From: Leptolyngbyaceae cyanobacterium
Lineage (GTDB): Bacteria; Cyanobacteriota; Cyanobacteriia; Phormidesmidales; Phormidesmidaceae
NCBI GenBank assembly: GCA_050043105.1
Contig: JBHJIV010000157.1
Location: forward strand, 1,470-25,469
Direction: 5' to 3'
DNA length: 24,000 nucleotides
Part shown: positions 5,226-23,677 of the stretch, piece by piece
Position numbering within the stretch: the stretch's first letter is position 1
How the letters are laid out: each line of letters begins with the position of its first letter
Made by a program: the position numbers and the translations under genes
Notes under the pieces: model-generated
What the model was told of the DNA's origin: nothing
Database searches by the model: none
Seen by the model: the letters and a program-made list of their open reading frames with translations, nothing else

Positions 5226-7151
5226 CTAATTAAAGACGCTGTGCTCAGTTAGCGTAGCCATGGCCTGCTGAAGCTGAGATCGCCTCAGCTGATTACAGAG
5301 ACGGATCAGCAGATCTGAGTCAGCCGATGATTTTTCGACTAAATCATCAGCCCCAGCTCTAAGAGCCGCCGCTTTTGAATCAGCATCGCTACGGGCTGTA
5401 AAGAAAATGATGGGTAGCTGATGCCAAATAGGGGCCTGACGGACGGCCTGGCAAAGTTCCATACCCGTAAAGTCCGGCATTTCCATATCTAGTAAAAGCA
5501 GGTCTGGGCATGCTGTTTGTAGCGTGACCCAAAAATCAAGTGGTTGACTGAGGGTCACCAGCCGCAGTCCTTTGGGTTCTAAGAGAACCCGCAGCGCTGC
5601 CAAGACTTGTGGATCATCATCGACGGCTAATACGGTGGGTCGTTGGCGATGCGATCGCACCTCTAACACACTCTTGAGCATGGTAGAAACATCTGGGCTA
5701 TGGAGAAAAGAGTGGCTGCCTAGCTGAGCGGCTTTAACGCGACTGGCGAGACTGCCATCGACACTACCGATTAACACTGGCAGCGGCGGCAGCTGATTGA
5801 TTAAATTCGACAGTCGCTCTAAATCACCCTGATCTAGAGTGGCCAAACAGACATTGAATAAGACTACATCCGGTAGCTCAGCTTTGAATTCAGCTGCGTC
5901 TGGTGAGCTATCTGCTTGCACTTCATGGCGCTGGGTGACCTTGATTGCTTGCCGTACCGCTTCTAATGCCGATTCGCTCAGCGCCACCTGCACAGTCAGG
6001 TTTTTTGCTTGAAGGGCTTTAATCAGCTGATCAAATAAGTCTGAATTGTTATCAATCAAAACCAATAGAGGAGCAGCTAGCCCGGTTTTTGACTGCTCTA
6101 TTTGATCACAGGTTTGAATGAGTTGTTCTTCTAATGAGTTAACTAGCTCAGTCAGCTGTTGTTGATCATAGGGGTTAGTCAGCGTATCCTGCCGGAGAAT
6201 TGTTTCAATCGCTCGGGCCAAATCAGAGCCCAAGCGAAGACCAAATATACCCAGCGCCCCGGTTAGACTATGGGCAGCCCGAACCGAAGCCTGTTGCAAA
6301 TCATGAGTAAGACAATTATTCTGTAGTGCTTGATTGGTTTGCTTTAATAGCTCAAGTCGTTCCAGCTGCTGAGGCTTGACCGTTGGCCAGAGCGTCACCA
6401 AAGCGGCTCTGGTCTTTTGATAATACATCACAGGATTGCTGCTGCCTAGAGCCGGTTGAGCGGGTGCTTCAGATGTATCAGTCGATTTAAGGCGATAGCC
6501 AACACCATATACGGTTTTAATCAGATCGCCCGGTGCCCCCGCTTCAGTTAGCTTGCGGCGTAATCCTTTCACATGGGACGTGACCGTATCTTCACCGGGG
6601 GCGTCACTGCAGCTCCAGAGATTATCTAAAATAGCACCTCGGCTAAACACCTGAGATGGGTTTCTCATAAATAACTCCAGCAGCCCATATTCTTTTGGCG
6701 TCAGCTGTAGAGTAATCTCTCCATAGTTAACGTCTCGACTATTGAGATCTAACCGTAGCTTACCCCACTCAAGTGTCGATAAAACTGGTGTGTGAACGCG
6801 TCGTAAAAGAACTCGCACCCGTGCTAACAGTTCTTCAAGTTCTAGAGGCTTGATCAGATAGTCGTCAGCTCCTGCATTCAGTCCGGCAATTTTTTTGGTG
6901 TTAGAATCTAGGGCTGTCACCAACAGCACAGGCATATTGTAAGAACGCTCTCGTAGACGACGACAAAACTGCAGGCCATCTAACTCAGGCAACACAATAT
7001 CTAAGACGACCAAGTCATAGCTAAAGGTGCTAACAAGATGCCAGCCAGTCTGACCATCATTGGCAACATCTACAGCATAATTTTCATCAGTCAAAACTTT
7101 CTGGAGAGCTTTGGCAACTGATTCATCATCCTCAACGAGTAGAATCCTCAT
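5226..7151 (-). CDS. rfpB: RfpB, multidomain response regulator / transcription factor (REC - OmpR winged helix - Hpt-like - degenerate REC - REC)
   Basis: 641 aa. N-terminal receiver: MRILLVEDDE...LVVLDIVLPELDG...DDYLIKP. OmpR/PhoB-type wHTH: LTPKEYGLLELFMRNP...TVYGVGYRL. C-terminal receiver: VLAVDDDP...LLLLDMEMPDFTG. The gene sits between the PSI paralog operon and rfpA. Confidence 0.85.
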   Translation of the reverse strand: MRILLVEDDESVAKALQKVLTDENYAVDVANDGQTGWHLVSTFSYDLVVLDIVLPELDGLQFCRRLRERSYNMPVLLVTALDSNTKKIAGLNAGADDYLIKPLELEELLARVRVLLRRVHTPVLSTLEWGKLRLDLNSRDVNYGEITLQLTPKEYGLLELFMRNPSQVFSRGAILDNLWSCSDAPGEDTVTSHVKGLRRKLTEAGAPGDLIKTVYGVGYRLKSTDTSEAPAQPALGSSNPVMYYQKTRAALVTLWPTVKPQQLERLELLKQTNQALQNNCLTHDLQQASVRAAHSLTGALGIFGLRLGSDLARAIETILRQDTLTNPYDQQQLTELVNSLEEQLIQTCDQIEQSKTGLAAPLLVLIDNNSDLFDQLIKALQAKNLTVQVALSESALEAVRQAIKVTQRHEVQADSSPDAAEFKAELPDVVLFNVCLATLDQGDLERLSNLINQLPPLPVLIGSVDGSLASRVKAAQLGSHSFLHSPDVSTMLKSVLEVRSHRQRPTVLAVDDDPQVLAALRVLLEPKGLRLVTLSQPLDFWVTLQTACPDLLLLDMEMPDFTGMELCQAVRQAPIWHQLPIIFFTARSDADSKAAALRAGADDLVEKSSADSDLLIRLCNQLRRSQLQQAMATLTEHSVFN

Positions 7152-7477: not shown

Positions 7478-7618
7478 TCAAGGTGTGCCATGAAAATAGG
7501 TGCCATACTGTAAGCCGGGAAAAATGCGATTTAGTTCAATCATCACTCCAGATAAAATAACCAGAGTGGCTGCGGCCATGATGGGGGCACTGGTCAAATA
7601 TTTGATGAAATATTGCAT
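7478..7618 (-). CDS. psaJ2: Photosystem I subunit IX (PsaJ), far-red paralog
   Basis: 46 aa from the internal ATG (complement of 7616-7618), preceded by AGGAG: MQYFIKYLTSAPIMAAATLVILSGVMIELNRIFPGLQYG.... It matches the PsaJ pattern (..FLSTAPV....L...AG.LIEFNRF.P). The 29-codon upstream extension in the ORF track has no homology. Confidence 0.8.
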   Translation of the reverse strand: MQYFIKYLTSAPIMAAATLVILSGVMIELNRIFPGLQYGTYFHGTP

Positions 7619-7727
7619 AGAATTCTCCTGGTTAAAACATTGATATTGCTGTTCCTCGGGACGGTTTTGGTTGTGGCAGTTAAATAGCCACGGCTCTCGA
7701 CTCATGCCCTCAGCGATCGCAACCCAT

Positions 7728-8210
7728 CTATCGAGGGGATACCGACAGCTCAGAATCTTTTGTTGTGAGTTCTCCGGAAAGCAATTCTTTGACCGCTAGT
7801 AGAGGCCACAGTAGTCCTTGTGCAAAGGAACGAATGGCTAATGGGATATCGATAAAGATTTCAAACTCCTCTGGTTTAGACGATTGCTTAGCGTCAATTA
7901 GGTAGGCTCGACCCGACCAGCCGACAAAGCCTGCAAAGTAAAAGAAAATAACAAAGGGAATAATCACATCTAGGGCTCGGTCAAGTCTGAGCTGTAGATG
8001 CGGTAACCCATCGTCTCCACACAGCAGATTAGAGGCATAAAGCTGATAGGGTTGCTCAAAGTAATAGCTCTGGGGCGCATTATACATACGTTCTTGAAAT
8101 GCCCCTGAGGTTTGGCAAGGAACAAGATGGGTGCCTGTATCTGCCACGGCAGGTGAAGCAATGCTTGTCCAAAGCATTGTCGTCAACAAAATTGCAAAAA
8201 GCTTTTGCAT
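7728..8210 (-). CDS. psaF2: Photosystem I subunit III (PsaF), far-red paralog
   Basis: 160 aa with a signal peptide, then DTGTHLVPCQTSGAFQER...LLCGDDGLPHL...GFVGWSGRAYL, which is the typical PsaF lumenal domain and TM helix. AGGAGA lies 7 nt upstream of the ATG. Confidence 0.9.
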   Translation of the reverse strand: MQKLFAILLTTMLWTSIASPAVADTGTHLVPCQTSGAFQERMYNAPQSYYFEQPYQLYASNLLCGDDGLPHLQLRLDRALDVIIPFVIFFYFAGFVGWSGRAYLIDAKQSSKPEEFEIFIDIPLAIRSFAQGLLWPLLAVKELLSGELTTKDSELSVSPR

Positions 8211-8249: not shown

Positions 8250-8477
8250 CTACAGCGGTGTACTTTCGATAAAATCACCTTTCATGACGGGCTGAGATTC
8301 AGATGGTAACGATGTTGACACTTCTCCCATTATTTGCTCGCTATTGCTTTCTTTTTCAATCCAGAGAAAGATAATAGCGAAGATAGGAAACGGCAGAATA
8401 TAAAAAATCAGCGGGATCATAATCCAGGGTAGCCATGAAATGGCATAGTCTCCGGTCAGTTGAGTCATATCGGTCAT
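8250..8477 (-). CDS. psaI2: Photosystem I subunit VIII (PsaI), far-red paralog with a long C-terminal tail
   Basis: The N-terminal 42 aa, MTDMTQLTGDYAISWLPWIMIPLIFYILPFPIFAIIFLWIEK, match the PsaI pattern (..SYAASFLPWI.IP.......P.....L.FLYIE). AAGGAG lies just upstream. The ORF runs about 30 aa past the usual PsaI end. Confidence 0.75.
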   Translation of the reverse strand: MTDMTQLTGDYAISWLPWIMIPLIFYILPFPIFAIIFLWIEKESNSEQIMGEVSTSLPSESQPVMKGDFIESTPL

Positions 8478-8528: not shown

Positions 8529-9092
8529 TTAACCCAGACCACCTGACATAACGGCGTGGCTAACATTGACGGCACCGCGCAAAATAGCATCCAGCTCGTC
8601 AAAGTTTTCTAGCAACATGTAGGCAAAAATGGCTCCCCCTGTGGAGCCTAGCAAAATACCTCCGCTGAGCTGAAACCAGTCTTCTTTTTTACGCATAGGG
8701 CGCAGCGGGTCTCGGGAGTACGAGCCATAAGCCCCCTGGGGGTTACCTTGGAACGTACTCAAAGCAAAAATGGAAATCCCTAGACAGGCGGATACAGTGA
8801 TGTAAATTGCCGTGATTAGGCCACTTAGATTGGCCCCGTGGGCAGTCTCGCGCAGCGGTCCTACCACCACTTCTGGGCCTACCAGGAAATACCCGTGGGC
8901 CATGCCGATCTCTAACCCTCTTAAAAAGGGTGTGAGCCCAGCACGATAGGCTGGAAGATTGTTGATGTAGGCCTTTGCTAATTTAGAGCTATTGATGGGA
9001 GTTGCTAGATTTCCCAGCCAAGGGTTGTTCCGATAGGGCTGAATTGGATCATCCTTGGAATAGGCATCTGACCAAGTGGGTGTGGTTGACAT
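8529..9092 (-). CDS. psaL2: Photosystem I subunit XI (PsaL), far-red paralog
   Basis: 187 aa from the ATG (complement of 9090-9092), preceded by GAGGAGA: MSTTPTWSDAY...NLATPINSS..AKAYINNLPAYRAGLTPFLRGLEIGMAHGYFLVGP, the PsaL signature region. The ORF-track start at 9218 adds a non-homologous leader. Confidence 0.9.
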   Translation of the reverse strand: MSTTPTWSDAYSKDDPIQPYRNNPWLGNLATPINSSKLAKAYINNLPAYRAGLTPFLRGLEIGMAHGYFLVGPEVVVGPLRETAHGANLSGLITAIYITVSACLGISIFALSTFQGNPQGAYGSYSRDPLRPMRKKEDWFQLSGGILLGSTGGAIFAYMLLENFDELDAILRGAVNVSHAVMSGGLG

Positions 9093-9236
9093 TAGTAGTC
9101 TCCTCTGTAGCTTAGCTGGTAACTCTGTCGTCAGTAAGAAAAGTCTTGACCGCTGACCAACGGCCAAGACTCGTGTACGCAAATGAGGAGTTCGCGTAGT
9201 TAAACTCGTGCTGGCCAATAGGGTGGTGTACTCAGA

Positions 9237-11468
9237 TCACGGAAATCGGCTCGCTGTCGACGCAATTAAAAATGCGCCATAGGTAGCAATGTAGCCAACG
9301 GTAAAATGGGTCAGCCCCACTAGCCGGGCCTGTACGATTGATAGGGCAACCGGTTTATCTTTGGGATATCCAAAGGATAACGGTGTATGTTCATGGGCCC
9401 ACAAGAGTGTTTCAATCAGTTCTTGCCAATAGCCCCGCCAGGTAATTAGGAACATAAAGCTCACAGCCCAAGCCAGGTGGCCAAAGAGAAACATCCAGGC
9501 CCAAACGGCCAGATTATTGGTGCCATAGACGTTATATCCATTGATCAGCTGGGATGAATTGAGCCATAGATAGTCACGGAACCAGCCCATCAGATATGTG
9601 GAGCTTTCGTTAAACTGGGCAACATTACCACTCCAAATGGCTAAATGTTTCCAATGCCAGTAAAAGGTGATCCACCCCAGGGTATTGCGCATCCAATACA
9701 TGGCTAAATAGAATGTATCCCAGGCGGAAATATCACAGGTGCCGCCACGGCCTGGCCCATCGCAGGGAAAGCTGTAGCCAAAATCTTTTTTATCTGGCAT
9801 TAGCTTAGAACCACGGGCATCCAATGCGCCTTTGACTAAAATCAAGGTGGTGACATGGAGACCAAGTGCGATCGCATGGTGAACCAAGAAATCGCCAGGA
9901 CCAATGGTGAGAAATAGCGAATTAGTACCGCTGTTAATGGCGTCTAGCCACCCTGGCAACCAGACATCGCCATGGTTAGGCCAGGCGGTGGTGGCAATAC
10001 TATCCGAGTTCGATAGCAGGCTATTGATACCGTATAGGGTTTTGCCGTGAAACGCCTGAATCCACTGGGCAAAAACAGGTTCCACCAGAATCTGTTTTTC
10101 AGGTGCACCAAACGCCACCTCACAGTCGTTGAGCACATAGAGACCCAGGGTATGGAAGCCTAAAAACAGAGAGACCCAGCTCAAGTGAGAGATAATGGCC
10201 TCTTTATGGTTTAGCACCCGAGACAGCACATTATCTTCGTTCGCCTGTGGATCATAGTCACGGATTAAGAAAATAGCACCGTGGGCAAAGGCCCCCACCA
10301 TCAAGAACCCAGCAATATACTGGTGGTGAGTATACAACGCCGACATGGTGGTGTAATCACGCGCCAAAAAGGCATAAGGGGGCATGGAGTACATGTGCTG
10401 AGCGACCAATGAGCACACCACCCCTAAACACGCCAGGTGCCACCCGAGTTGAAAGTGAAGAGAATTGTTGTAGTCATCATAGATGCCCTTATGGCCACGA
10501 CCGGTACGCGGTGCAATAAAGAAACCACTCCATCCAGGCCCTTGGAGAGACTCGGTCATTTCTTTAATGCTGTGACCAATACCAAAGTTGGTGCGATACA
10601 TGTGACCAGCAATGATAAAGATAACGGCAATGGCAAGATGATGATGGGCCATGTCCGTTAGCCACAGAGACTCGGTTTGAGGATGAAAGCCTCCCAAAAA
10701 GGTGAGAATGGCCGTGCCTGCTCCCTGAGCGCTGTTAAATAGGTGGTCTGCGGTATCAGGATTTTGAGCATAAACACCCCAGTTGCCTGTAAAGAATGGC
10801 GTTAGTCCGGCGGGGTGGGGCGGCGATGCCAGCAGGTTGTCCCAGCCGACGTGCCGACCGCGTGATTCAGGGATGGCTACATGAATTAAATGCCCGGCCC
10901 ACGCCAGGGAGCTGACGCCAAACAAACCTGCCAAATGGTGGTTCAGGCGCGATTCAGCATTCTTAAACCAGGCCAGACTTGGACGAAACCGAGGCTGCAG
11001 GTGTAAAAACCCTGCATAGAGCATCACCGCTGCTAGCACCAACAAAAATATTGACCCCACAAACAGGTCGCTGTTGGTGCGCATGCCAATGGTGTACCAC
11101 CAGTGATAAACGCCGGAGTAGCAAATATCGACGGGGTTGTTGGCCCCGGCCTGGGTATAAGCCTCAATCGCAGCTGGTCCAAACTGGGCATCCCAAATAG
11201 CGTGGGCAATGGGTGACGTATTTAAAGGATCTTGAATCCATCTTTCAAAATTGCCCTGCCAGGCCACATGAAACAAAATGCCTGATATCCATAAAAAGAT
11301 AATGGCGAGATGCCCAAAATGGGAGGCGAAAATCCTTTGATAAAGACTTTCCTCCGTCATCCCGTCATGGCTTTCAAAGTCATGGGCCGTGGCGATGGAA
11401 TAAAAGAGTCGACGCGTGGTCGGGTCTCTCTGTAGATCCTGACTAAATTTTGGAAATTTTGTCGCCAT
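9237..11468 (-). CDS. psaB2: Photosystem I P700 apoprotein A2 (PsaB), far-red paralog
   Basis: 743 aa: [23 protein letters not shown]...[18 protein letters not shown] (FX cluster Cys pair). Collinear with PsaB throughout. Confidence 0.95.
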
Positions 11469-11531: not shown

Positions 11532-13877
11532 CTACCCGACAGCAGCCATGCGAGCTAGGAAAAAGGCCCAGGTGGTGACAATCCCCCCTAGAAGATAGTG
11601 GGCAACGCCCACGGCTCTTCCCTGGGTAATGCTTAGGGCCCGAGGTTGAATAGCGGTGGTAATTTTGAGTTTGTTATGGGCCCACACGATAGACTCGATT
11701 AGCTCTTGCCAATAGCCTCGACCACTAAACAAAAACATTAGACTAAAGCCAAAGATAATATGCCCAGCTAAGAACATCACCCCGTAGGCAGACAGCGATG
11801 ACCCATAGGAGTTAATCACCTGAGAAGCCTGTGCCCACAGGAAATCTCGTAGCCAACCGTTGTTGGTAATCGATGATAAAGCAAAGTTACCCCCGGTGAT
11901 GTGGGAAATCGTGCCGTCGGCGTCTATCGTGCCCCAAACATCTGACTGCATTTTCCAAAAGAAGTGGAAAATAACAATCGAAAGAGAGTTATACATCCAA
12001 AATAACCCTAAGAAGACATGATCCCAGGCAGATACCTGACAGGTGCCGCCTCGCCCAGGTCCATCGCAGGGGAAACGGAAGCCTAAATCAGCCTTATCGG
12101 GAACTAAACGAGAGCTACGGGCAAACAACACCCCCTTGAGCAGCACCAGCACAGTTACGTGGATGGTAAAGGCATGAATGTGGTGAATCAGAAAATCAGC
12201 CGTCCCTAACGGTATGGGCATCATGGCAATCTTGCCACCCACGGCGATAATATCTCCTCCAAAGGCATGGCTCACTGGCTCGGTAAGGTTAGGAACTGTG
12301 TTCCCTATTCCCGATAGTTGAATGTTGCGCAAACCCCCAAATACATTTCCTAACGGTTCAGCCACCTGGGAGTTACCCACAGCCATGGTGTGAATATGTT
12401 GAACCCACTGGGCAAAGATTGGCTGCAGCTGAATGCCTGTGTCTGAGAACATATCTTGGGGGCGACCAAAGGCTCGCATGGTGTCGTTGTGACAATACAT
12501 GGCAAAGCTGTGGAACCCTAAAAACTGGCAGACCCAAGCCAGGTGAGAAATAATCACATCTCGGTGACGCAGCACCCGGTCAAGAACATTGTTGACGTTT
12601 TGAGCTGGGTCGTAGTCTCGCACCATATAGATAGCGGCGTGGGCCGCTGCACCCACAATTAGAAAGCCACCAATCCACACATGGTGGGTAAACAGCGATG
12701 TTACGGTGGCATAGTCCGTGGCTAGAAACGGATAGGGCGGCATGGCATACATGTGGTGGGCCACAATAATGCTCAAGGACCCTAGCATGGCCAAATTCAG
12801 CGAGAGCTGTGCATGCCAGGATGTGGTCAATACCTCAAATAGTCCCCTGTGCCCCACAGGCCCAATAAAGCTGAGAAATGACAACATTTTGGGAGTGCCA
12901 GCATCCTCTAGCATGACCTTAATGTCGTGGCCAATGCCCCAGTTGGTGCGGTACATGTGTCCGGCAATGATAAACAGAACTGCGATCGCAATATGGTGAT
13001 GGGCAATATCTGTCATCCATAGCCCCCCTGTGGCTGGGTTTAACCCCCCCCGAAAGGTCAGAAAATCAGCATAAGCGGACCAGTTTAGGGTAAAAAAGGG
13101 CTTAATGCCTTGGGCAAAGCTGGGATACAGCTCTGCCATCAGACTTTTATTGAGAATAAACTCATGGGGAAGCGGAATATCTTGTAATGAGACACCTGCA
13201 TCCAACAGCTTGTTTGTTGGCAGAGCAACATGAATTAAATGTCCCGCCCAGCCTAAGCTACCTAAACCCAGCAGCCCAGCTAAATGATGGTTGAGCATCG
13301 ACTGCACATTCAGAAACCACTCTAGCTTGGGGGCTCGTACATGATAGTGAAACCAGCCTGCAAACAGCATTAGCACTGCCATCACTAGTGCTCCCATGGC
13401 GGTCCAGTAGAGCTGAAACTCGTGGGTAAAGCCCTCACCGCGCCACATCTGAAACAGTCCAGACGTAATTTGAATGCCGCGAAAACCACCGCCGACATCA
13501 GCATTGAGAATATCTTGACCAACAATCGGCCAAACTACCTGAGCGCTGGGTTTTATATTGGTTGGATCACTCATCCAGGCAGAAAAATTGGAAAAGCGAG
13601 CACCGTGAAAATACATGCCACTCAGCCAAACAAAGATGACGGCCAGATGACCAAAATGGGCCGAGAAGATTCTACGGGAGATATCTTCTAAATCAGTCGT
13701 ATGACTATCAAAATCATGGGCATCCGCATGGAGATCCCAAATCCAGGTAGTAGACTTGGGTCCGCGTGTCAGAGACCGCTTGAAATGCCCCGGCTTGGAC
13801 CATGGCTCAAACGATGTAGGCACCGGATTATTATCAACAGCAACCTGCTGCTTCTGATCCGGAGGACTTGTGGTCAT
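11532..13877 (-). CDS. psaA2: Photosystem I P700 apoprotein A1 (PsaA), far-red paralog
   Basis: 781 aa: ...[16 protein letters not shown]...[29 protein letters not shown].... AAGGAG lies 8 nt upstream of the ATG. Collinear with PsaA apart from a longer lumenal loop (see findings). Confidence 0.95.
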
Positions 13878-13908: not shown

Positions 13909-13935
13909 GCGAACTAGCCCAATTGGCTAGTTCGC
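13909..13935 (-). promoter_or_regulatory. Perfect 11-bp stem / 5-nt loop hairpin spanning the chlF stop codon in the chlF-psaA2 spacer
   Basis: gcgaactagcc (13909-13919), loop caatt, ggctagttcgc (13925-13935). The chlF TAG (complement of 13927-13929) lies inside the stem. No U-tract follows on the minus-strand transcript, so it does not look like a classical intrinsic terminator. Confidence 0.35.
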
Positions 13936-15102
13936 CACTCCGGTTGATGTGTCTGCAGCGTTAATAAACTCAGCGTCTTCTCCAAGAAAGATAGGAAATG
14001 TTGTTTTACGGGTATCTTTGACCGCATAAATACCCAAGTTTGCCTGTACGACAACATCAGACCATGTCGGCACAACTGTCTTTTGAAAAGACTGTCCTAG
14101 CGGCAACCGATCAAACCCCAAAGCTGCCATATCTACGCCTATAGCCGCTGACCAAATGCCTGCTACCGGTAAAGCGGCAAGTAAAAAATGGACAGCGCGA
14201 GATGTCTCAAACGTTGCCCCTCGCCATAGTAGTTTCTGTTGATAGGCCTGAGTATGCTCAAAGCTATAGGTGCGATTGCTCTTTTTTGGCCGTTCTGCTA
14301 AAACAGAATGCTGCTCCGAGTGACGCACCAGCGCAGACGTGACCAAAGCCCCATGCAATGAGCAGAGTAACGCCCCACCAAACACGCCGATTACCCCCAG
14401 CTGGTGAAAGGGGTTAGCAAGAATATTATGGTCAGCCTGAAATTCCAGCATAAAGGTAAATGTTCCGGAAATTCCGAGAGGCATACCCGAAGCAAAACCG
14501 CCTTGACCGATAGGGTAGATCAACAACACTGAGACCGCTGCCGCAACTGGGGCTGTAAACGCTAGCGAAATCCAGGGACGCATGCCCAAACGATAGCTCA
14601 GTTCCCATTCTCGATCTTGATAGCTAATGCTACCAATGATAACGTGCAGCACAATTAGCTGATATGGACCCCCGTTAACCAGCCATTCGTCTAAAGAGGC
14701 CGCCTCCCAAATTGGATAAAAATGAAGTCCAATTGCTGCTGATGTCGGCACAACGGCGGCCGTAATCACATTATTACCGTCCAATAGAGCACCGGAAATA
14801 ACTCTCCCTGTACCCTCTATATCAACAGCAGGGGCGGCTATAAACGCCAGTATGAAGACAATGGCGGCCGTAGACAGAGTGGGAAACATAATCATCCCAA
14901 ACCAGCCCACATAGATTCGATTTTCGGTACTGGTCACCCACCGGCAGAAACGCTCCCAGGGAGAAATTGGCGCAGCCGCATCCACGCAAATAGCACGTCT
15001 CGATGGAGGGTCTACATTGGAGTGACCACTACCAGATAGGGTAGGCGACTCCAACTGTTTTAGAGATGATTTAGTAGTAATCACTTTGCTAAGCTGTGTC
15101 AT
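13927..15102 (-). CDS. chlF: Chlorophyll f synthase ChlF (PsbA4, super-rogue D1)
   Basis: 391-aa D1 homolog: [15 protein letters not shown]...[13 protein letters not shown]...[13 protein letters not shown]. It has YQDREWE where D1 has YMGREWE (QD motif; codons at complement of 14614-14619). FASGMPLG replaces FSDGMPLG (D170 lost). There is no HE...H...D.A C-terminal Mn-ligand set, and an N-terminal extension of about 35 aa is present. Confidence 0.9.
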
Positions 15103-15186: not shown

Positions 15187-15514
15187 AAATCTCTTGAAGG
15201 CACGAGCCGATTTCGACTCTCACTTCTCGACTAATTAACAAGCGCCTTTCAATCACCGTTCACGAAACCAAAGATAGTTGAATTAACAGTAGGGAAACTA
15301 TAGAAACAAAAGATGGAAAACTAATGAAGATAAAAATCCCCTATAGAAAAAGTTACAGTTTAGATACAGATACGTTATTGGGTACTGTCAAGCGCCTATG
15401 TTCTCTTTAAAGGATTTAGCCTGACTAACGTATAAGAAAAGGGTATGATATCTTCAGGCTGTAGCATACAAAGCCTGAGTCAATCGATTCGATATTGATT
15501 CAAGTAAGTTGCTG

Positions 15515-15746: not shown

Positions 15747-16271
15747 ATGCATTTCCATCTCAAAAAAATCTCAATCAAGCCTATCATCTCTACGATTTTT
15801 ACACTGTTGCTCTCGTCCATTTTATGGATAACTGTTGGGGATGACGTGGCCGGAGCGGTTGAAATTAATCAGGCTACTCGTACCGTACCGCTAAATGATG
15901 CAGGCGATCAAGTCACAGTAAGTGTTAAGCAGTTTACTACGGGGCAGCGAAAGTTTAATAGCAACTGTGCCCAGTGCCACTTAGATGGAGGTACCAAAAC
16001 CAATCCTGATGTCGATCTGGGTGCCGAACGGTTGTTACTGGCAACGCCCTCACGCAATAATATTAAGAGCATGATCGAGTATCTAGAAAATCCCACGACC
16101 TATGATGGATTAACGTCCCTAGAAGAGCTACATCCCTCACTCGCTCGTTCTGATCTCTTTCCTAAAATGCGAGAGCTAACGGAGGAGGATTTAATTGCGA
16201 TTTCAAGCTACATACTAATCCAGCCAAAAATTGTCGGTGAGCAGTGGGCTGGTGGTAAACCAAACCGGTAG
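15747..16271 (+). CDS. psbV: Cytochrome c550 (PsbV) paralog, PSII lumenal extrinsic subunit
   Basis: 174 aa with a signal peptide, then TVPLNDAGDQVTVSVKQFTTGQRKFNSNCAQCHLDGGTKTNP...ATPSRNNI..MIEYLENPTTYDG...ELHPSLARSDLFPKMRELTEEDL. It is collinear with canonical PsbV, including the CxxCH heme motif and the distal His in HPSL. AGGAGA lies 9 nt upstream of the ATG. Confidence 0.85.
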   Translation: MHFHLKKISIKPIISTIFTLLLSSILWITVGDDVAGAVEINQATRTVPLNDAGDQVTVSVKQFTTGQRKFNSNCAQCHLDGGTKTNPDVDLGAERLLLATPSRNNIKSMIEYLENPTTYDGLTSLEELHPSLARSDLFPKMRELTEEDLIAISSYILIQPKIVGEQWAGGKPNR

Positions 16272-16322
16272 CTGTAGACAAGCAAAAAGCCAGATTAGAC
16301 TGGCTTTTTGCTTGTCTACAGC
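16271..16322. terminator. Bidirectional intrinsic terminator shared by convergent psbV (+) and psbO-psbF-nblA (-)
   Basis: Perfect 23-bp inverted repeat: gctgtagacaagcaaaaagccag (16271-16293), loop attaga (16294-16299), ctggctttttgcttgtctacagc (16300-16322). The core GCCAG/CTGGC stem is flanked by an A5 tract on one side and a T5 tract on the other, so it reads as a terminator on both strands. It begins at the last base of the psbV stop codon and ends 9 nt from the nblA stop. Confidence 0.8.
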
Positions 16323-16331
16323 TTGAGAGAT

Positions 16332-16499
16332 TTAAGGATTTCTGATTAAATGCTTAACCAAATTCTCTCTCATCATCATTAGCTGCATGATGTCTATGAT
16401 ATATTCTTGAGCTTGAATAACTGTCAGCCCCTTGACCTGCTCTCTTAAAATTTGTATCTCAAACTGTTGCTCTAAGGTCAAATCTCCTGGCATTCCCAT
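16332..16499 (-). CDS. nblA: NblA-family phycobilisome degradation (proteolysis adaptor) protein
   Basis: 55 aa from the ATG (complement of 16497-16499), with GGAGGAG 8 nt upstream: MGMPGDLTLEQQFEIQILREQVKGLTVIQAQEYIIDIMQLMMMRENLVKHLIRNP. It aligns along its whole length with remembered NblA/Ycf18 sequences (LS.EQQF.........QV..........F.......M..EN......R). The 93-aa ORF-track version extends into psbF in another frame and is rejected. Confidence 0.8.
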   Translation of the reverse strand: MGMPGDLTLEQQFEIQILREQVKGLTVIQAQEYIIDIMQLMMMRENLVKHLIRNP

Positions 16500-16531
16500 A
16501 ATAATTGCTCCTCCATCGATTAAATGTGGCC

Positions 16532-16666
16532 TTAGCGCTGAACAAACTGCATCGCTGCGATCGCACCTAAGAAAAATACTGTCGGAATCCCCAGAGCATG
16601 TACTGCCAGCCATCTGATAGTAAAAATAGGATACCGAATCTCCTGGTCACGGTTGATATTAGCCAT
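16532..16666 (-). CDS. psbF: Cytochrome b559 beta subunit (PsbF) paralog; small ORF not in the ORF track
   Basis: Manual base-by-base reverse-complement translation gives [44 protein letters not shown] followed by a stop (44 aa). It is near-identical in pattern to canonical PsbF (..[31 protein letters not shown]), including the heme-ligand His. AAGAGG lies about 9 nt upstream. It starts 22 nt after the psbO stop. Confidence 0.85.
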
Positions 16667-16688
16667 CGGAAAAACCTCTTATTTACAA

Positions 16689-17513
16689 TTAAGCAACTGC
16701 TTGGTCGATCCGACCATAGAACTGACCTTGAATTCTGACATCCATCGGCTCTTTAGCACCAAAATCAGTATCAGAAGGTTGATTGCTTTCAAATAACCCA
16801 GCAATTTCTCCTGTTTTTCGATTGACTCGAGTGATTTGTAGAGAAATCTCCCCTTCACCCACCTCAAAGGACTTGCTGTTTTGACGGGAAAATTTCTCCC
16901 GATCTGCCTGAATTGGGAATCCTACTGCTGCATCATATCCTGATGATAATCCCCGTCCTTTTGGATCAATAAAATTGGATGTGCGATAGGGAGGTACCTG
17001 GAATGTTCCCACTAGTCGGGTTGTTGGGCTTAGCTTATTTGAGACATCTTGATTTTTAGCCACAAGTCCTTTAATCGTAAATAGCAGAGCAATCCGCTCA
17101 CCATTGGGAGGCTGTACCGTTACGGGCTGAAAGTCAAATCCCCCCTGCTCAGCAAAAGTGATGTTGCCATCAGAATCGACTTGTAAAGAACCACTTACTT
17201 GATCAAGACTAAAACTCTCGCGGGTGAGGGGTTTTGAAACTACGAAATCATTCTCCTGACTCTTGACCATAGAAGAGCCTTTTACTAGAAATGTCTCAGG
17301 TTGTAAACACAACCCATTAAGTTGATACGACTGATTAGCATCTATAGCAATTGCATCCCGACTGCTGCGTGACAGTTGAGGACAGTTATTGGCTAGACCA
17401 CTACCCTTGATGTCATCGTAGCTTAGTGAGCTAGCCTGTGGGCCGCCACTGCAGGCGGTAATTAGTCCAAAGCACAAGACTAATAAACCAGTTATTAACG
17501 TACGATATTTCAT
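16689..17513 (-). CDS. psbO: Manganese-stabilising protein PsbO paralog, PSII lumenal extrinsic subunit
   Basis: 274 aa from the ATG (complement of 17511-17513; an alternative ATG is at 17528): MKYRTLITGLLVLCFGLITACSGG...LSYDDIKGSGLANNCPQL...GLCLQPETFLVK...FQPVTVQPPNGERIALLFTIKGLVA...VPPYRTSNFIDPKGRG.SSGYD...TGEIAGLFESNQPSDTDFGAKEP.DVRIQGQFYGRI. It is collinear with cyanobacterial PsbO, including both disulfide cysteines. Confidence 0.9.
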   Translation of the reverse strand: MKYRTLITGLLVLCFGLITACSGGPQASSLSYDDIKGSGLANNCPQLSRSSRDAIAIDANQSYQLNGLCLQPETFLVKGSSMVKSQENDFVVSKPLTRESFSLDQVSGSLQVDSDGNITFAEQGGFDFQPVTVQPPNGERIALLFTIKGLVAKNQDVSNKLSPTTRLVGTFQVPPYRTSNFIDPKGRGLSSGYDAAVGFPIQADREKFSRQNSKSFEVGEGEISLQITRVNRKTGEIAGLFESNQPSDTDFGAKEPMDVRIQGQFYGRIDQAVA

Positions 17514-17659
17514 TTTTTGTTCTCTCATTAATGGCGTAGGCGCGTAACCAGACGAAAGCGCACTCGCAAATTTGTGAAAAGATGATAGTCCACACGATAA
17601 ATTCCCCCACAAAAAAATGGAGAACATATGAAGAGAGAGTTTATGTATCGCTGATTATT

Positions 17660-17695
17660 AACTTATGTAAAGCGATTTTCATATTTTCATAAGTT
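17660..17695. promoter_or_regulatory. 8-bp inverted repeat enclosing a perfect tandem 8-mer, in the psbO/apc divergent region
   Basis: aacttatg (17660-17667) and cataagtt (17688-17695). Inside is attttcat-attttcat (17675-17682 and 17683-17690). The background is AT-rich, so a chance occurrence is plausible. Confidence 0.2.
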
Positions 17696-17879
17696 CTCCA
17701 TTTTTTTTTCCTATTCTTCTTGCAAGCTTTAGTAAAACAAGTCTTCCTTACTGCTCAGGTGAGCATCTAGCTTTTTTAGCCAGATGTTTTCTAAAGAGTA
17801 AGACTCTAAATCTTGTTGGCCTGATGCAAGCGATAAATGCCTTCAATCAGCTATGTAGTCTAACGGAGAATGAATCACG

Positions 17880-18356
17880 ATGAGCCTGGTTACAGAACTC
17901 ATTCTGGGTGCAGATAGTGAAGCTCGCTATTTAGCTCCAAAGGAACTGCGGATTTTTCAAGACTTTGCCAAAACTGGAGAACAGCGTATTCGGATCGCCA
18001 GAGCGCTGGCAGAAAATGAACAGCGTATTGTGCAAAACGGTAGTCAGAAATTTTGGGAACGTTGTCCAAATACGCCAAGCAATAGCGGAAACGATCGTAA
18101 AACAGCCTCTTGTCAACGAGATCAAGGCTGGTATGTTCGTTTAATTGCTTATTCTATTTTGGCCGGGAGCGAACGCCCGTTAGAAGAGATTGGTACAGTC
18201 GGTATCAAAGCAATGTACAACAATCTAGAAATTCCGATTCGCAATATTGCAGAATGCATGCGCTGTCTTAAAGAAGAGGCAATGGCTCTTCTAAGTGAAG
18301 AAGATGCTCAAGAAGTAGCTCCATACTTTGATTTGATCATTCATTCACTTTTGTAA
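17880..18356 (+). CDS. Allophycocyanin alpha-type subunit, far-red paralog (ApcA2/ApcD2/ApcD5 class; exact paralog not assignable by eye)
   Basis: 158 aa: MSLVTELILGADSEARYLAPKELRIFQDF..TGEQRIRIA...KTASCQRDQGWYVRLIAYSILAG...VAPYFDLII. This is the AP alpha globin fold with the chromophore Cys at residue 78. It has the divergent PNTPSNSGN segment where canonical ApcA has ...SPGGNAYG.... Confidence 0.9.
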   Translation: MSLVTELILGADSEARYLAPKELRIFQDFAKTGEQRIRIARALAENEQRIVQNGSQKFWERCPNTPSNSGNDRKTASCQRDQGWYVRLIAYSILAGSERPLEEIGTVGIKAMYNNLEIPIRNIAECMRCLKEEAMALLSEEDAQEVAPYFDLIIHSLL

Positions 18357-18417
18357 ATCGCCGACTTAAATATTGTTGGGACCGTTAAATCATTTTCTAA
18401 ATTCAAGGAGAATATCC

Positions 18418-18903
18418 ATGCAAGATGCAATTACCACCTTAATTAATTCTTCTGATGCCCAGGGTAGATATTTAGACGATTCGTCGTTAGACAATTTACA
18501 AAACTATTTTCGCAGTGGTGATTTGCGGGCGCGGGCGGCTATGTCCATCAGTGCCAATACCTCCATAATTGTGACTAAGACAGTGGCTAAAGCACTGCTC
18601 TACACAGACATCACGGCTCCCGGTGGCAACATGTATACCTGTCGTCGCTATGCAGCCTGTGTTCGCGATATGGAAATTTTCCTACGTTACGCAACCTACG
18701 CCATGCTAGCGGGCGATCCATCAATTCTAGATGAGCGAGTACTCAATGGATTAAAAGAGACCTATAACTCGTTGGGGGTTCCTGTCGGCGCGACAGTGCG
18801 GGCCGTACAGTCGATGAAGGAAGTCGTCAATGAGATGTTAGGTGCAGAAGCTGGGCGAGAGATGGGAGTGTGTTTTGACCATATTTGCTCGGGCTTAAGC
18901 TAG
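18418..18903 (+). CDS. apcB2: Allophycocyanin beta-type subunit, far-red paralog
   Basis: 161 aa from ATG 18418, with AAGGAG 7 nt upstream: [31 protein letters not shown]...[54 protein letters not shown]. This is the ApcB pattern with the chromophore Cys in AACVRD. The ORF-track start at 18373 is a TTG leader. Confidence 0.9.
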
Positions 18904-18985
18904 CTCAATAAAATAACCCACTCCACAATCTCTTTATTAGAGACTTGTCCATAGCTAACTCTATTGTGTATTGGGACCATCCATC

Positions 18986-19465
18986 ATGAGTATCATCACT
19001 CAGGCGATCGCCAATGCTGATCGTGAGACCCGCTATCTCAGCCAGGGAGAATTAGATAGTATTCGCCTCTTTTTTCAAGATGGGCAACAGCGTCTGCGGA
19101 TTGCCTATATTTTGACTCAGAATGTGCAAACAATTGTAGAGAAAGGTAGTCAACGATTTTGGCAGCGTCATCCTATAACACCCAGTAATAGCGGCAATCC
19201 CACATTTCGGAGTTCCTGTCTGCGAGATCAAAGCTGGTTTATTCGTCTGATTTCCTATGCGGTTGTAGTGGGTGATATCGACCCCATTCAACTCAGCGGA
19301 GTGAGAGGGGTCAAAGAGATGTACCTGTCTCTAGAAGTCCCTCTTCGAAACGTCGCCGAATGTATGCGCTGCCTTAAAGAAGAAACCTTGGAACTATTGA
19401 GTTTAGAGGATGCGGCAGAGGTTGCCCCCTACTTTGACTATCTGATTCAAGGATTAATGCCCTAA
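18986..19465 (+). CDS. Allophycocyanin alpha-type subunit, far-red paralog (second copy)
   Basis: 159 aa from ATG 18986: MSIITQAIANADRETRYLSQGELDSIRLFF...ITPSNSGNPTFRSSCLRDQSWFIRLISYAVVVGD...VAPYFDYLIQGLMP. Closely related to the 17880 gene (shared RN.AECMRCLKEE....LLS.EDA.EVAPYFD). The chromophore Cys is present. Confidence 0.9.
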   Translation: MSIITQAIANADRETRYLSQGELDSIRLFFQDGQQRLRIAYILTQNVQTIVEKGSQRFWQRHPITPSNSGNPTFRSSCLRDQSWFIRLISYAVVVGDIDPIQLSGVRGVKEMYLSLEVPLRNVAECMRCLKEETLELLSLEDAAEVAPYFDYLIQGLMP

Positions 19466-19492: not shown

Positions 19493-21880
19493 ATGCCCGA
19501 TCAGATTAATGGGGGTAGCCCAGTCATTCATCCACAGCTGTATCACACTGTCCCAACGGCTGTTATTACCGAAGCACAACAGCGAGATCGTTATCTAAAC
19601 CGGAGTGAAGCCACAGAACTCTCTACCTTTTTTGATTCTGGGTTAAAACGATTAGAGATTGCCAAAAATCTCACTCAGCATGCCGACAAAATCATTGCCG
19701 CTGGTGCTAATCGTATTTTTGTTGGCGGCAATTCAATGGCTTATCTAGAGCGTCCTAAAGACCCTCTAGGATTGCCAGGCTCAGGTTACTATGTAGGAGA
19801 AGATTATCTTTCTGCAGCCCGTAAGCAAAAAGAGAACTCTTCACGGATTCTTCCTCGTTCTGTAGATCCTACCAATAACTTAGCTGAATGGTTTAAGGGG
19901 CTCATGGCTGGGGGTAAACCTAGCCTTCCCAGCCGCTTTCGTGCTATTGATGTATCTCGTTATGGCGTTGTTCGGATGAAACGCTCTCTACGAGATTTAA
20001 GCTGGTTTTTGCGATATGTAACCTATGCAATTGTGGCAGGCGATACCAGCATTCTCAGTGTCAACACCCGAGGACTTCGAGGGGTTATTCCAGAAGATGT
20101 AACGTTGGCCACTGTTGTAGCCTTACGAGAAATGCAGTGGAAAGCGCTCACGTATTTCCCATCTGAGTCTGCAGCCGCGTCACTGGTCAAGCGATATTTT
20201 GATGTGTTGATCGCCGATTATTTAATCGAAAAACCCTCGCCTCAGCTGCGTGCTGGTGTTTCAAAACATCATCCGGGGCTACAGCTGCCCCAGAGCTATA
20301 GCGACAGTGCTAACCCTCAACCCCGGTGGGTAATCAAGCCCAATCTGCCCGATATTGAAAAAAATGAGGTGTTGCAGGCGGCCTATCGACAGATCTTTGA
20401 GCGCGATATTACTCCGCTGTACGGTGAGACTTTACTAGAGCTGGCTTCACAGCTTAAAAGCGGTCTCTGGTCAATGAAAGAGTTTATTCGCCAGTTAGGC
20501 AAATCGAGACTCTATCGACAGCTATATTATGAACCCTACACCCTCAGCCGCAGTATCGAACTGGCCTGTCGGCATTTCTTAGGGCGAGGGCTAAGCTGCC
20601 TAGAAGAGTTTCAGGGCTATTTTGAAGTCGTCTCTAACCAGGGTTTTTCGGCGTTGGTCGACACCTTGATCAACTCACAAGAATATGCTGATTATTTTGG
20701 TGAGGAGACTGTTCCCTACATTAGAGGGTTGGGGTTAGAAGCTCAGGAATGCAGGAATTGGGGACCGCAGCTAGATCTGTTCAAATACAGTACGCCGGTA
20801 CGTAAGGTGTGTCAGTTTGTCACCACCTTTGCTGGATATCAACAGCCTTTACCCAACCAGCATCCCTATGGTGTCGGTAATGATCCACTAGAAATCCAGT
20901 TCGGGGCCATATTTCCCCAAGAAACTCGTAATCCTAGAATGCAGCCCGCCCACTTTAGCGAGGACAGTCGACGGATTTTAATTAGCAATGGGGCCGGTAA
21001 TGGACATAGCGGCTTGAGCGACCTAATGCATCTGGGTAGGGCACCGGGTTCTCCCCAGCATCATCTCCTGAGATGGGAGTCTGTAGGCCGTCCCTTAAAA
21101 CAGAGGTCAAACCATGCTAATGGTGCTTCACCTAGCATGAATCTTACCCATCACTCCCATGATGCCGTCATTCATGCTGCCTATCGTCAAGTATTTGGCC
21201 ATGAAATATTTGATGGCCAACGTCAGTCTGTGGTCGAAATGCAGCTCAAAGCAGGCAAGATCACCTTACGAGAGTTTATCCGCCAGCTTGCCAAGTCTCG
21301 CCTATTTCGCGAGATGTCTTGGGAAAAGCTTTATGTTACCAAGGCCATTGAATATATCCATCGCAGATTACTAGGACGGCCCACCTATGGACGTCGAGAA
21401 ATGGCTCAGTTTTATGATATCTGTGCCTACGACGGGTTTTATGCCCTTGTTGATGCTTTGATAGACAGTGATGAGTATATTCGGGTCTTTGGCGAAACCA
21501 TAGTCCCTTACGAGCGCTATCTTACTCCGCGTGGGTTTGCGCTACGCTCACCGCAGGGACCTGTGGCATGGTCAAAACCTAGAGACAATCCACCCACTGT
21601 CGGTGAGTGGATGCGCAGTCATCCTGCTCCTGTTGCGTCGATGGTGTCTAATTTTGAGGCTGGCGTGACAACGCTTACAACGAACTCACGTCAACAAGCT
21701 CCCACCTTGAATGAAGCCCAATTAGCGCAACCTCAGACAACAGAATTATCTCAAAAGAATTTGGCTATCCATCCCAATAGCGGTGATACCTATGCAGAAA
21801 GTACGGTTAGACAGGCTGTCTCTGTTGCTGAGCCGCAGCCTGAGGCGACGGGACAACAAGAGGGCGAAAGTGAGCAGTAG
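19493..21880 (+). CDS. apcE2: Phycobilisome core-membrane linker ApcE, far-red paralog with two REP (linker) domains
   Basis: 795 aa. The N-terminal phycobiliprotein-like domain (QQRDRYLNRSEATELSTFF...WFLRYVTYAIVAGD) is interrupted by a loop insertion. Exactly two PBS-linker repeats follow: AAYRQIFERDI...FIRQLGKSRLYR...LINSQEYADYFGEETVPY and AAYRQVFGHEI...FIRQLAKSRLFR...LIDSDEYIRVFGETIVPY. GGAG lies 8 nt upstream of the ATG. Confidence 0.9.
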   Translation: MPDQINGGSPVIHPQLYHTVPTAVITEAQQRDRYLNRSEATELSTFFDSGLKRLEIAKNLTQHADKIIAAGANRIFVGGNSMAYLERPKDPLGLPGSGYYVGEDYLSAARKQKENSSRILPRSVDPTNNLAEWFKGLMAGGKPSLPSRFRAIDVSRYGVVRMKRSLRDLSWFLRYVTYAIVAGDTSILSVNTRGLRGVIPEDVTLATVVALREMQWKALTYFPSESAAASLVKRYFDVLIADYLIEKPSPQLRAGVSKHHPGLQLPQSYSDSANPQPRWVIKPNLPDIEKNEVLQAAYRQIFERDITPLYGETLLELASQLKSGLWSMKEFIRQLGKSRLYRQLYYEPYTLSRSIELACRHFLGRGLSCLEEFQGYFEVVSNQGFSALVDTLINSQEYADYFGEETVPYIRGLGLEAQECRNWGPQLDLFKYSTPVRKVCQFVTTFAGYQQPLPNQHPYGVGNDPLEIQFGAIFPQETRNPRMQPAHFSEDSRRILISNGAGNGHSGLSDLMHLGRAPGSPQHHLLRWESVGRPLKQRSNHANGASPSMNLTHHSHDAVIHAAYRQVFGHEIFDGQRQSVVEMQLKAGKITLREFIRQLAKSRLFREMSWEKLYVTKAIEYIHRRLLGRPTYGRREMAQFYDICAYDGFYALVDALIDSDEYIRVFGETIVPYERYLTPRGFALRSPQGPVAWSKPRDNPPTVGEWMRSHPAPVASMVSNFEAGVTTLTTNSRQQAPTLNEAQLAQPQTTELSQKNLAIHPNSGDTYAESTVRQAVSVAEPQPEATGQQEGESEQ

Positions 21881-21942: not shown

Positions 21943-22035
21943 GGCAGCTTAACCCTTTGAACTATCACATTTATGTTGGTTGGTTTGGGGGTGTGTGTAT
22001 CTATCCCAAACATCAATATTCCAAACTCCAAAACC

Positions 22036-22569
22036 ATGAGTATCGTTAAACAGGTCATTCTCAATGCCGATGAAGAACTTCGCTATCCTACTCCTGGTGA
22101 GCTACGGATGATTCGCACTTTCTACAAAACAGGACCAGAGCGCATTCGGCTAGCTTAAACGTAAGAAGAAAAAGCTCAGGCGATCGTAGATAGAGGCACT
22201 CGAAAATTTTGGCAGCTTTGTCCGAGGACACCGAGCAACAGTGGTGATCGCCGCAAAACCGAAGCAGCTAAGCGAGATGTCGGTTGGTATATCCGTTTAA
22301 TTAGCTACTGTTTGTTAGCTGGCAACAATCGTCCATTAAGAGAGATTGGCTTAGTTGGAATGAAAGAGCTATATACCAATATTGGTATTCCGCTCACTAA
22401 CATTTTGCAGTATATCCGGTGTCTCAAAGCGGAGGCTATTGCTTTGCTAGATGAGACCGATGCAGCCGCTGTCATTCCCTACTTTGATGAAATCATTCAG
22501 GAATTGGCTCTGCCAGGGCCACCCTATTTTATGAACGATGGTATCGGTGAGAGTGAATCAGTCGTTTAA
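22036..22569 (+). pseudogene. Allophycocyanin alpha-type far-red paralog (Cys-less, ApcD3-like) interrupted by two in-frame TAA codons
   Basis: A single frame from ATG 22036 reads MSIVKQVILNADEELRYPTPGELRMIRTFYKTGPERIRLA*T*EEKAQAIVDRGTRKFWQLCPRTPSNSGDRRKTEAAKRDVGWYIRLISYCLLAGNN...VIPYFDEIIQELALPGPPYFMNDGIGESESVV. The stops are at 22156-22158 and 22162-22164. There is no frameshift, and the reading is collinear with the two intact alpha paralogs. The ORF track splits it into 21973-22158 and 22312-22569. Confidence 0.75.
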
Positions 22570-22618: not shown

Positions 22619-23677
22619 ATGACAATTTCAATGGGTGCGTTAAAACCAGCTAGAAGCTGGATAGGGGGACTTGACGACTGGTTAAAACGAGACAGCTATG
22701 TGTTTGTTGGCTGGTCAGGATTACTCTTGTTTCCCTGTGCGTACTTGGCTATAGGGGCCTGGTTTACCGGCACCTCATTTGTTACATCTTGGTATACTCA
22801 TGGTCTTGTCAGCTCTTATTTAGAAGGCTGTAATGTTCTCACCACTGCTGTGTCTACCCCGGCTGAAAGCATGGGGCATTCACTTTTGTTTCTATGGGGA
22901 CCAGAGGCCGGTGGGGATTTTACCCGCTGGTGTCAGATTGGTGGGCTGTGGAATTTTACTGCTCTTCACGGTGCACTCGGGCTGATGGGCTTTATGCTGA
23001 GGCAGATTGAGCTTGCCCGGTTAGTGGGTATTCGTCCCTACAACGCTATTGCTTTTTCGGCTCCAATTGCAGTTTTTGTGGCAACGTTTTTAATCTATCC
23101 CCTGGGTCAGTCCAGCTGGTTTTTTGGGCCTAGTTTTGGAGTGGCCGCCATCTTTCGATTTCTTCTATTTTTCCAGGGATTTCATAACTACACCCTAAAT
23201 CCCTTTCACATGATGGGTGTAGCAGGGGTATTAGGCGCTGCATTGCTCTGTGCCATCCATGGAGCAACCGTACAAAATACCCTTTTCAAGGACTCGGAAG
23301 GTAAAAACACATTTAGAGGGTTCTCGACAACTCAAGCGGAGGAAACCTACTCTATGGTGACGGCTAATCGCTTTTGGTCTCAGATCTTTGGTATTGCATT
23401 TTCCAATAAGCGCTGGCTTCACTTCTTTATGCTGTTTGTGCCAGTAACGGGCTTGTGGATGAGTGCAATTGGCATGATTGGTCTGGCCTTTAATTTGCGG
23501 GCTTATGACTTTGTGAGTCAGGAAATCCGGGCAGCGGAAGACCCTGAATATGAGACGTTTTACACCAAAAATGTCTTGCTCAATGAAGGGGTACGGGCCT
23601 GGGCATCAGAGCTTGATCAACCAGCGAAAAAGTTTGTCTTTCCAGAGGAGGTGTTACCTCGTGGCTTTGCTGAATAA
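22619..23677 (+). CDS. psbD3: Photosystem II D2 protein (PsbD), far-red paralog
   Basis: 352 aa: [44 protein letters not shown]...[25 protein letters not shown]...[23 protein letters not shown]...FPEEVLPRG. Full-length and collinear with D2. AAGGAGA lies upstream. Confidence 0.95.

Follow-up and report, generated by a model that had tools for sequence, protein, structure and literature searches.

The window (the whole 24-kb stretch of DNA analyzed here) carries a 44-codon minus-strand gene, psbF2, which, on sequence grounds, is a genuine second copy of psbF located within a far-red-light photoacclimation (FaRLiP) cluster. Its product is probably a far-red accessory isoform of the cytochrome b559 beta subunit, made together with PsbO2 and NblA, which pairs with the single housekeeping PsbE and whose special property, if it has one, lies in its N-terminal tail.

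PsbF proteins are typically about 44 residues long, with one transmembrane helix and a heme-ligand histidine in an R-W-L/V-x-x-H motif. The ORF list of the window contains a 44-aa frame at 16532-16666 on the minus strand, for which the following features were established:

16532..16666 (stop codon included), minus strand: psbF2, encoding a 44-aa cytochrome b559 beta paralogue, assigned from PF00283, TIGR01333 and pN/pS
16675..16680, minus strand: Shine-Dalgarno-like AAGAGG, 8 nt 5' of the psbF2 ATG, read from the sequence

The psbF2 product passes the curated cut-offs of both Pfam PF00283 (Cytochrom_B559; E=1.7e-16, 59.8 bits, cut-off 30) and the NCBIfam equivalog TIGR01333 (cyt_b559_beta; 87.3 bits, cut-off 61.15). 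It has the single helix and the heme histidine which are the hallmark of the cytochrome b559 beta family, His23 lying within an RWLAVH motif and being invariant in all 22 intact orthologues. These data bear out the original prediction, made from the sequence of the window, that a 44-aa PsbF with its own ribosome-binding site and the heme-ligand histidine is read in the other minus frame. Likewise, purine-rich boxes resembling AGAGG or AGGAG precede most psbF2 orthologues. A protein identical to PsbF2 is encoded on 11 public contigs, and the 10 contigs shown, mainly from marine metagenome assemblies, have the same neighbors, as far as each contig reaches. The gene had been described as hidden, which does not hold: gene callers recognize it and label it 'cytochrome b559 subunit beta', the GenBank entry of the identical protein being 'MAG: cytochrome b559 subunit beta [Cyanobacteria bacterium P01_H01_bin.21]', and only a 60-aa ORF threshold conceals it.

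Related loci were collected with PsbO2 as anchor and one genome per species, leading to 34 loci. Among these, 32 possess a FaRLiP-type psbO2 (61-96% identity) with FaRLiP apc genes and psbD on its 5' side in nearly all cases, where the contig reaches, and L039 and L040 contain a psbO of only 50% identity and lack FaRLiP genes in its vicinity. Two of the 32 FaRLiP-type loci fall outside the psbF2 count, their contig ending too early. In the 30 species-level FaRLiP loci extending past psbO2, psbF2 is located directly 3' of psbO2 in 23, while seven (L016, L019, L023, L028, L029, L041 and L044) lack it and show a short clean gap instead, a distribution which suggests repeated loss of the gene from FaRLiP clusters. 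In L016, about 65 nt separate psbO2 from nblA, and the clusters devoid of psbF2 include those of Vasconcelosia minhoensis LEGE 07310 and Cf. Phormidesmis sp. LEGE 11477. Isolates carrying psbF2 include Leptolyngbya cf. ectocarpi LEGE 11479, Oscillatoria sp. CS-180, Nodosilinea sp. P-1105 and Synechococcus 7335. In Phormidesmis sp. RL_2_1 (L042:8329-8484), the C-terminus of psbF2 is frameshifted (…GAIAPCSLFKDSLSFRGY), and this copy is either a pseudogene or the product of an assembly error at 3x coverage.

Orthologues come from 22 other species-level genomes. Over the 21 distinct intact psbF2 sequences, pS averages 0.70 and pN 0.115. Pooled over the whole protein, pN/pS amounts to 0.166, with values of 0.067 for residues 12-44 and 0.51 for residues 2-11. 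Judged by these ratios, psbF2 is under strong purifying selection. These values and the identical protein on 11 contigs place psbF2 far outside what a chance frame would give. It is missing from 7/30 clusters, and Table S8 of Antonaru et al. 2024 records it in only 17% of surveyed FaRLiP clusters and in 14/20 clusters with psbV (bioRxiv 10.1101/2024.05.15.594131), so that psbF2 is dispensable for FaRLiP. PsbF2 is an optimizing subunit and not an essential one.

Two longer frames overlap psbF2, as originally reported, a 93-aa frame on the minus strand (16332-16613) and a 61-aa antisense frame on the plus strand (16432-16617). As both exceed psbF2 in length, one of them could be the real product and the PsbF-like frame a relic. 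However, the sole family match of the 93-aa frame is NblA, over residues 44-92 only, and the frame proves to be composed of a real gene at its 3' end and of a spurious, non-conserved 5' extension of 38 codons. The real gene is the following:

16332..16499, minus strand: nblA paralogue, 55 aa (PF04485, E=2.7e-17), called as 55 aa on related contigs

The description of the 93-aa frame as a decoy is thus not upheld: its last 55 codons are a gene with its own GGAGGA box at 16509-16514, and only the 5' extension is spurious. In the 14 related loci having both genes, the extension is open across psbF2 in four and closed by stop codons in 10. The 61-aa frame has no family match in the profile search. 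Furthermore, purifying selection acts on the frame of psbF2 itself, which is also the gene called on all public contigs. It is thus extremely improbable that either overlapping frame is the real product, and psbF2 is retained as the gene encoded at this position. As for nblA, it was found in 17/30 related clusters, 14 of these 17 loci also carrying psbF2. NblA is a phycobilisome degradation protein, and a paralogue encoded inside a FaRLiP cluster could help to clear white-light phycobilisomes during far-red acclimation.

Judged by its gene content, the window is a FaRLiP cluster, as marked by the presence of chlF. Besides psbF2 and nblA, the following genes were identified:

989-2011, minus strand: trehalase
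2129-2710, minus strand: rfpC
2499-5225, minus strand: rfpA, phytochrome-type kinase
5226-7151, minus strand: rfpB
within 7478-7705, minus strand: psaJ paralogue
7728-8210, minus strand: psaF paralogue
8250-8477, minus strand: 75-aa ORF at the psaI position, no family match
8529-9218, minus strand: psaL paralogue
9237-11468, minus strand: psaB paralogue
11532-13877, minus strand: psaA paralogue
13927-15102, minus strand: chlF (psbA4, divergent D1 paralogue), PF00124 match, between the psaA paralogue and psbV2
15747-16271, plus strand: psbV2, far-red cytochrome c550 paralogue (PF14495, E=3.3e-50; TIGR03045, 199.9 bits, above cut-off)
16689-17513, minus strand: psbO2, far-red manganese-stabilizing protein paralogue, 274 aa (PF01716, E=2.6e-98)
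17880-19465, plus strand: three allophycocyanin genes
19493-21880, plus strand: apcE2
about 22036-22569, plus strand: fourth allophycocyanin-type gene
22619-23677, plus strand: psbD (psbD3), far-red D2 (703.7 bits)

The chlF product scores 444 bits against the psbA equivalog, below the cut-off of 596. Within this cluster, which comprises chlF, psaA2/B2, apcE2 and rfpABC, psbF2 lies between psbO2 and psbV2 and is co-oriented with psbO2, psbV2 being convergent with nblA. This layout recurs on the 10 contigs with the identical protein and in 23 species-level loci. The gene map thus agrees with the earlier claim that this psbF stands alone between psbO and nblA.

All related contigs have psbO2 called at 274 aa. 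A longer, 312-aa psbO frame, extended over 17514-17627 on the minus strand, was rejected: its ATG at 17627 is specific to the window (position 17626 is A, and C in L002) and falls inside the conserved FaRLiP upstream motif, and the real psbO2 start is 17513. The 75-aa ORF occupies the place expected for psaI2, flanked by the psaL and psaF paralogues, and gives no Pfam match. It bears a long acidic, serine-rich C-terminal extension and is called as 75 aa on related contigs. The allophycocyanin-type gene between apcE2 and psbD3 (21973-22569, plus strand) contains in-frame stops at 22156-22158 and 22162-22164 ('RLA*T*EEK'), where the 99.8%-identical contigs L002 and L004 read 'RLAKTLEEK'. The window differs from L002 at 28/17469 positions, mostly by A/T or A/C transversions, and the two stops look like low-coverage assembly noise rather than the mark of a pseudogene. 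No match came from Rfam and tRNA scans of the window.

The arrangement of psbO2, psbF2 and nblA is compact, psbF2 starting 22 nt past the psbO2 stop and nblA 32 nt past the psbF2 stop. psbF2 would be the middle gene of a psbO2-psbF2-nblA transcript, which would start at a FaRLiP-motif promoter, end at a 24-bp hairpin and be induced in far-red light. The elements on which this proposal is based are:

16270..16323, no strand assigned: perfect 24-bp hairpin between the convergent nblA and psbV2 (-43.8 kcal/mol)
17617..17632, minus strand: FaRLiP motif copy, TTCATATGTTCTCCAT then a T-run, about 120 nt upstream of psbO2
17686..17701, plus strand: FaRLiP motif copy facing the divergent apc operon
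15313..15328, minus strand: FaRLiP motif copy upstream of chlF

By direct folding, the hairpin has a z of -11.5, and 0/200 shuffles fold as well. It is likely a bidirectional terminator of the psbO2-psbF2-nblA transcript, and it was missed by the generic terminator scan because it has no T-tail. The inverted repeat overlaps the psbV2 stop codon by 2 nt. A generic sigma-70 scan of the window found promoter-like sites at the shuffled level only. The FaRLiP motif pattern, TTCATWAGTTYTCCAT (a 16-nt core) followed by a T-run, has 3 matches in the window vs 0.08 expected, two of them being back to back in the divergent psbO2/apc intergenic region. A relaxed form of the motif occurs at the same three places in nearly all related clusters (~30 species), almost never elsewhere in the 20-kb loci and not at all in the two non-FaRLiP psbO loci. 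In the shuffled controls, a match with at most three mismatches was obtained in 4/680. Directly in front of psbF2, no motif copy was found. A T-rich FaRLiP motif has been reported upstream of chlF, apc and psbO, in agreement with the motif of the window. From these positions, we infer that the psbO2-psbF2-nblA transcript is under FaRLiP control.

PsbF2 and the housekeeping PsbF, encoded by psbEFLJ, belong to the same family and share their length, their histidine ligand and a nearly identical helix, while they differ in genomic context (psbO2/nblA vs rubA-ycf48-psbE...psbL-psbJ), in their tail and in overall identity (64-75%). Over residues 12-44, the two groups are 89% identical to each other, compared with 91% and 90% within each group. 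Over residues 2-11, identity is 48% among PsbF2 proteins and only 25% between PsbF2 and housekeeping sequences. Within this tail, position 4 is hydrophobic in 22/22 PsbF2 and 0/9 housekeeping sequences, and Arg6 is present in 18/22 and 0/9, respectively. Position 8 is Gln in 13/22 PsbF2 and Glu in 8/9 housekeeping sequences, while position 9 is Glu in 14/22 PsbF2 and Pro in 9/9 housekeeping ones. The resulting consensus is M-T/A-N-Φ-N-R-D/E-Q-E in PsbF2 vs x-x-x-N-P/F-N-E-P in housekeeping PsbF (Φ, hydrophobic). Thr24Ala (HAL vs HTL) was rejected as a PsbF2 marker, being mixed in PsbF2 (13 T, 9 A) and also found in the housekeeping copies of the clade. Database comparisons follow the same division. 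The nearest proteins, at 77-86% identity, nearly all have an N-terminal N-x-N-R, and those which can be placed by identity to the psbF2 of a retrieved locus are in FaRLiP loci. The first matches without N-x-N-R appear at 73-75% identity, in a rubA-ycf48-psbE-psbF context which continues with psbL-psbJ in L049 and L050.

As the difference from the housekeeping protein is confined to a tail of about 10 residues, any far-red-specific property of PsbF2 must reside there. The N-tail of PsbF lies on the cytoplasmic side of PSII and is often unresolved in structures, which fits the many PsbF chains of only 28-39 residues in the PDB. The cytoplasmic tail conserved in PsbF2 alone (N-Φ-N-R-D/E-Q-E) could be a functional adaptation rather than the result of drift, a reading regarded as possible but doubtful. 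An adaptive tail might serve as a docking site, at the cytoplasmic face, for a far-red-specific partner, namely PsbD3, an assembly factor or the ApcE2 bicylindrical phycobilisome core. Such a tail might also direct cytochrome b559 into the ChlF 'super-rogue' complex, or retune the b559 or QC-site side path for a photosystem with less oxidizing headroom. If such an adaptation were true, cytochrome b559 would possess a natural isoform specific to light quality, which could serve as a genetic handle.

The best PDB match of PsbF2 is chain F of 7SA3/8EQM (E=4.5e-20, 77% identity), which correspond to the far-red PSII of Synechococcus 7335, PsbF2 being modelled there as the beta subunit in its canonical place, next to PsbE and with one heme b (PMC8689208, PMC9843442). 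The cryo-EM assignment of PsbF2 rests on two residues and was called tentative by the authors (PMC8689208). In the same organism, mass spectrometry of far-red PSII detected both PsbF1 and PsbF2, the latter being more abundant (PMC8689208, PMC9843442). Gisriel et al. stated that the two Synechococcus 7335 psbF genes 'are not modulated by FaRLiP' (PMC8689208).

The same observations can be read as those of a functionally equivalent spare, psbF2 providing extra beta subunit during PSII build-up, through dosage or local co-expression with psbO2/psbV2, while its tail drifts neutrally. A helix and heme region as in housekeeping PsbF, a fast-evolving tail, the loss of the gene from some clusters and the joint presence of PsbF1 and PsbF2 in the far-red PSII of Synechococcus 7335, from genes reported not to be FaRLiP-modulated (PMC8689208), agree with such a role. 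However, N-Φ-N-R has been kept in ~20 species with synonymous sites near saturation and is found in 0/9 housekeeping copies, the location of the gene behind a FaRLiP-motif promoter is conserved, and PsbF2 exceeds PsbF1 in far-red PSII (PMC9843442). A mere spare is hence considered rather unlikely, and a far-red accessory isoform, with any far-red-specific property carried by the tail, is the preferred reading.

Cytochrome b559 is an alpha/beta (PsbE/PsbF) heterodimer, for which psbEFLJ is the usual, yet not strictly defining, gene context. psbF2 departs from this context: tblastn searches of the 24-kb window with PsbE, PsbL and PsbJ queries, judged conserved enough for this use, found no such gene (best E about 1, 0.06 and 0.3, respectively). 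The PsbE query also had no match in the 44 loci searched, and none of the 34 psbO loci has a psbE, psbL or psbJ, so that the absence of a partner psbE beside psbF2, noted from the start, extends to these loci. A housekeeping partner is encoded elsewhere in a related genome. MAG P01_A01_bin.123 carries psbO2-psbF2-nblA on JBCBZT010000006 (L017) and rubA-ycf48-psbE-psbF-psbL-psbJ on JBCBZT010000083 (L049), its two PsbF proteins being 70% identical. In a PsbE protein search, the best 120 of 3107 matches were mostly Nostocales-type PsbE, and none of these came from MAG GCA_038748405.1. Among the matches listed, P0066 and P0068 (129-136 aa, on contigs of less than 1 kb) match both PF00284 and PF00283 and may be PsbE-PsbF read-through or fusion calls.

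Because its helix and His23 are indistinguishable from those of housekeeping PsbF, PsbF2 should take the canonical beta position. By analogy, it would share one heme with the single housekeeping PsbE, encoded elsewhere in rubA-ycf48-psbEFLJ, and would join far-red PSII when assembly begins, in the step that brings D2 and cytochrome b559 together. PsbF2 may also be part of the ChlF-containing PSII-like complex. Two modes of pairing had been envisaged for the orphan subunit. Pairing with the housekeeping PsbE is supported by the chain modelled beside PsbE in Synechococcus 7335 far-red PSII, whereas nothing supports a beta-beta homodimer. Similarly, the suggested link to far-red PSII is the best-supported reading, on the basis of the FaRLiP cluster and of the Synechococcus 7335 far-red PSII orthologue (7SA3/8EQM).

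Alternatively, PsbF2, or a PsbF1 displaced by it, could be a new subunit, occupying a non-canonical site or assembling with itself into a beta-beta heme protein. Homodimers of this b559-like type have been obtained in vitro or by heterologous means, and neither the window nor the 34 related psbO loci provide a partner psbE. Candidate sites are the single helix of the apo far-red PSII structure and the ChlF complex, Gisriel et al. 2021 having discussed a PsbF paralogue as a possible filler of the unassigned transmembrane helix (PMC8689208). Nevertheless, the more complete dimeric far-red PSII lacks this extra helix and has PsbE/PsbF2 at the canonical site (PMC9843442). In addition, the heme-binding helix is constrained as in housekeeping PsbF, and a housekeeping psbE exists in the psbF2-carrying relative described above. 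We thus consider a non-canonical subunit very unlikely, and an accessory isoform which joins the housekeeping PsbE at the canonical position remains the preferred reading.

Debate continues on what cytochrome b559 does as a redox component of PSII (review PMC12661325). As a natural and possibly conditional beta isoform which differs only in its cytoplasmic tail, PsbF2 is a convenient experimental handle. psbF2 also adds detail to far-red PSII remodelling. Since the existence, location and orphan status of the gene have been published and the protein is annotated, the window adds no new kind of element. The present analysis contributes a wider distribution of psbF2 (23/30 clusters, with repeated loss), its N-tail signature and selection statistics, as well as its conserved nblA partner and the placement of the FaRLiP motif with respect to the operon.

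In Synechococcus 7335, PsbF1 is encoded by psbEFLJ and PsbF2 by an operon with psbO, nblA and psbV (PMC8689208). The PsbF2 of the window shares with it the N-terminal signature (MTNIGREQ in Synechococcus 7335), the psbO, nblA paralogue and psbV partners and the lack of an adjacent psbE. The two differ in their surroundings: in Synechococcus 7335, psbV comes next on the same strand, at the cluster edge, whereas in the window psbV2 is convergent, with chlF beyond. Furthermore, the authors considered the Synechococcus 7335 duplication to be 'relatively unique and recent' and no part of the FaRLiP cluster, while the psbF2 of the window is inside the cluster and found in many species. A duplication that is 'unique and recent' to Synechococcus 7335 does not fit this distribution, psbF2 being shared by about two dozen species and having been lost several times.

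Among lineage-restricted accessory FaRLiP genes which replace a housekeeping subunit, psbF2 resembles psbH2, psbO2 and psbV2. For these three, far-red-specific transcription or translation is evidenced, in contrast to psbF2, for which Table S8 contains none, stating that expression 'lacks data' (bioRxiv 10.1101/2024.05.15.594131). The same table lists psbF2 as an accessory FaRLiP gene of ~45 aa, 'between psbO2 and psbV2, same orientation as psbO2' (bioRxiv 10.1101/2024.05.15.594131). It matches the window exactly, with a Nodosilineales-type cluster and a short motif upstream of psbO, and nothing essential differs; the nblA located 3' of psbF2 is unmentioned in this study (bioRxiv 10.1101/2024.05.15.594131). 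The novelty implied by the original prediction is thus not sustained, psbF2 being in Table S8 (bioRxiv 10.1101/2024.05.15.594131) and the Synechococcus 7335 operon having been described (PMC8689208). Collectively, the psbF2 of the window fits both the Table S8 entry and the Synechococcus 7335 PsbF2 and, therefore, represents an already known gene.
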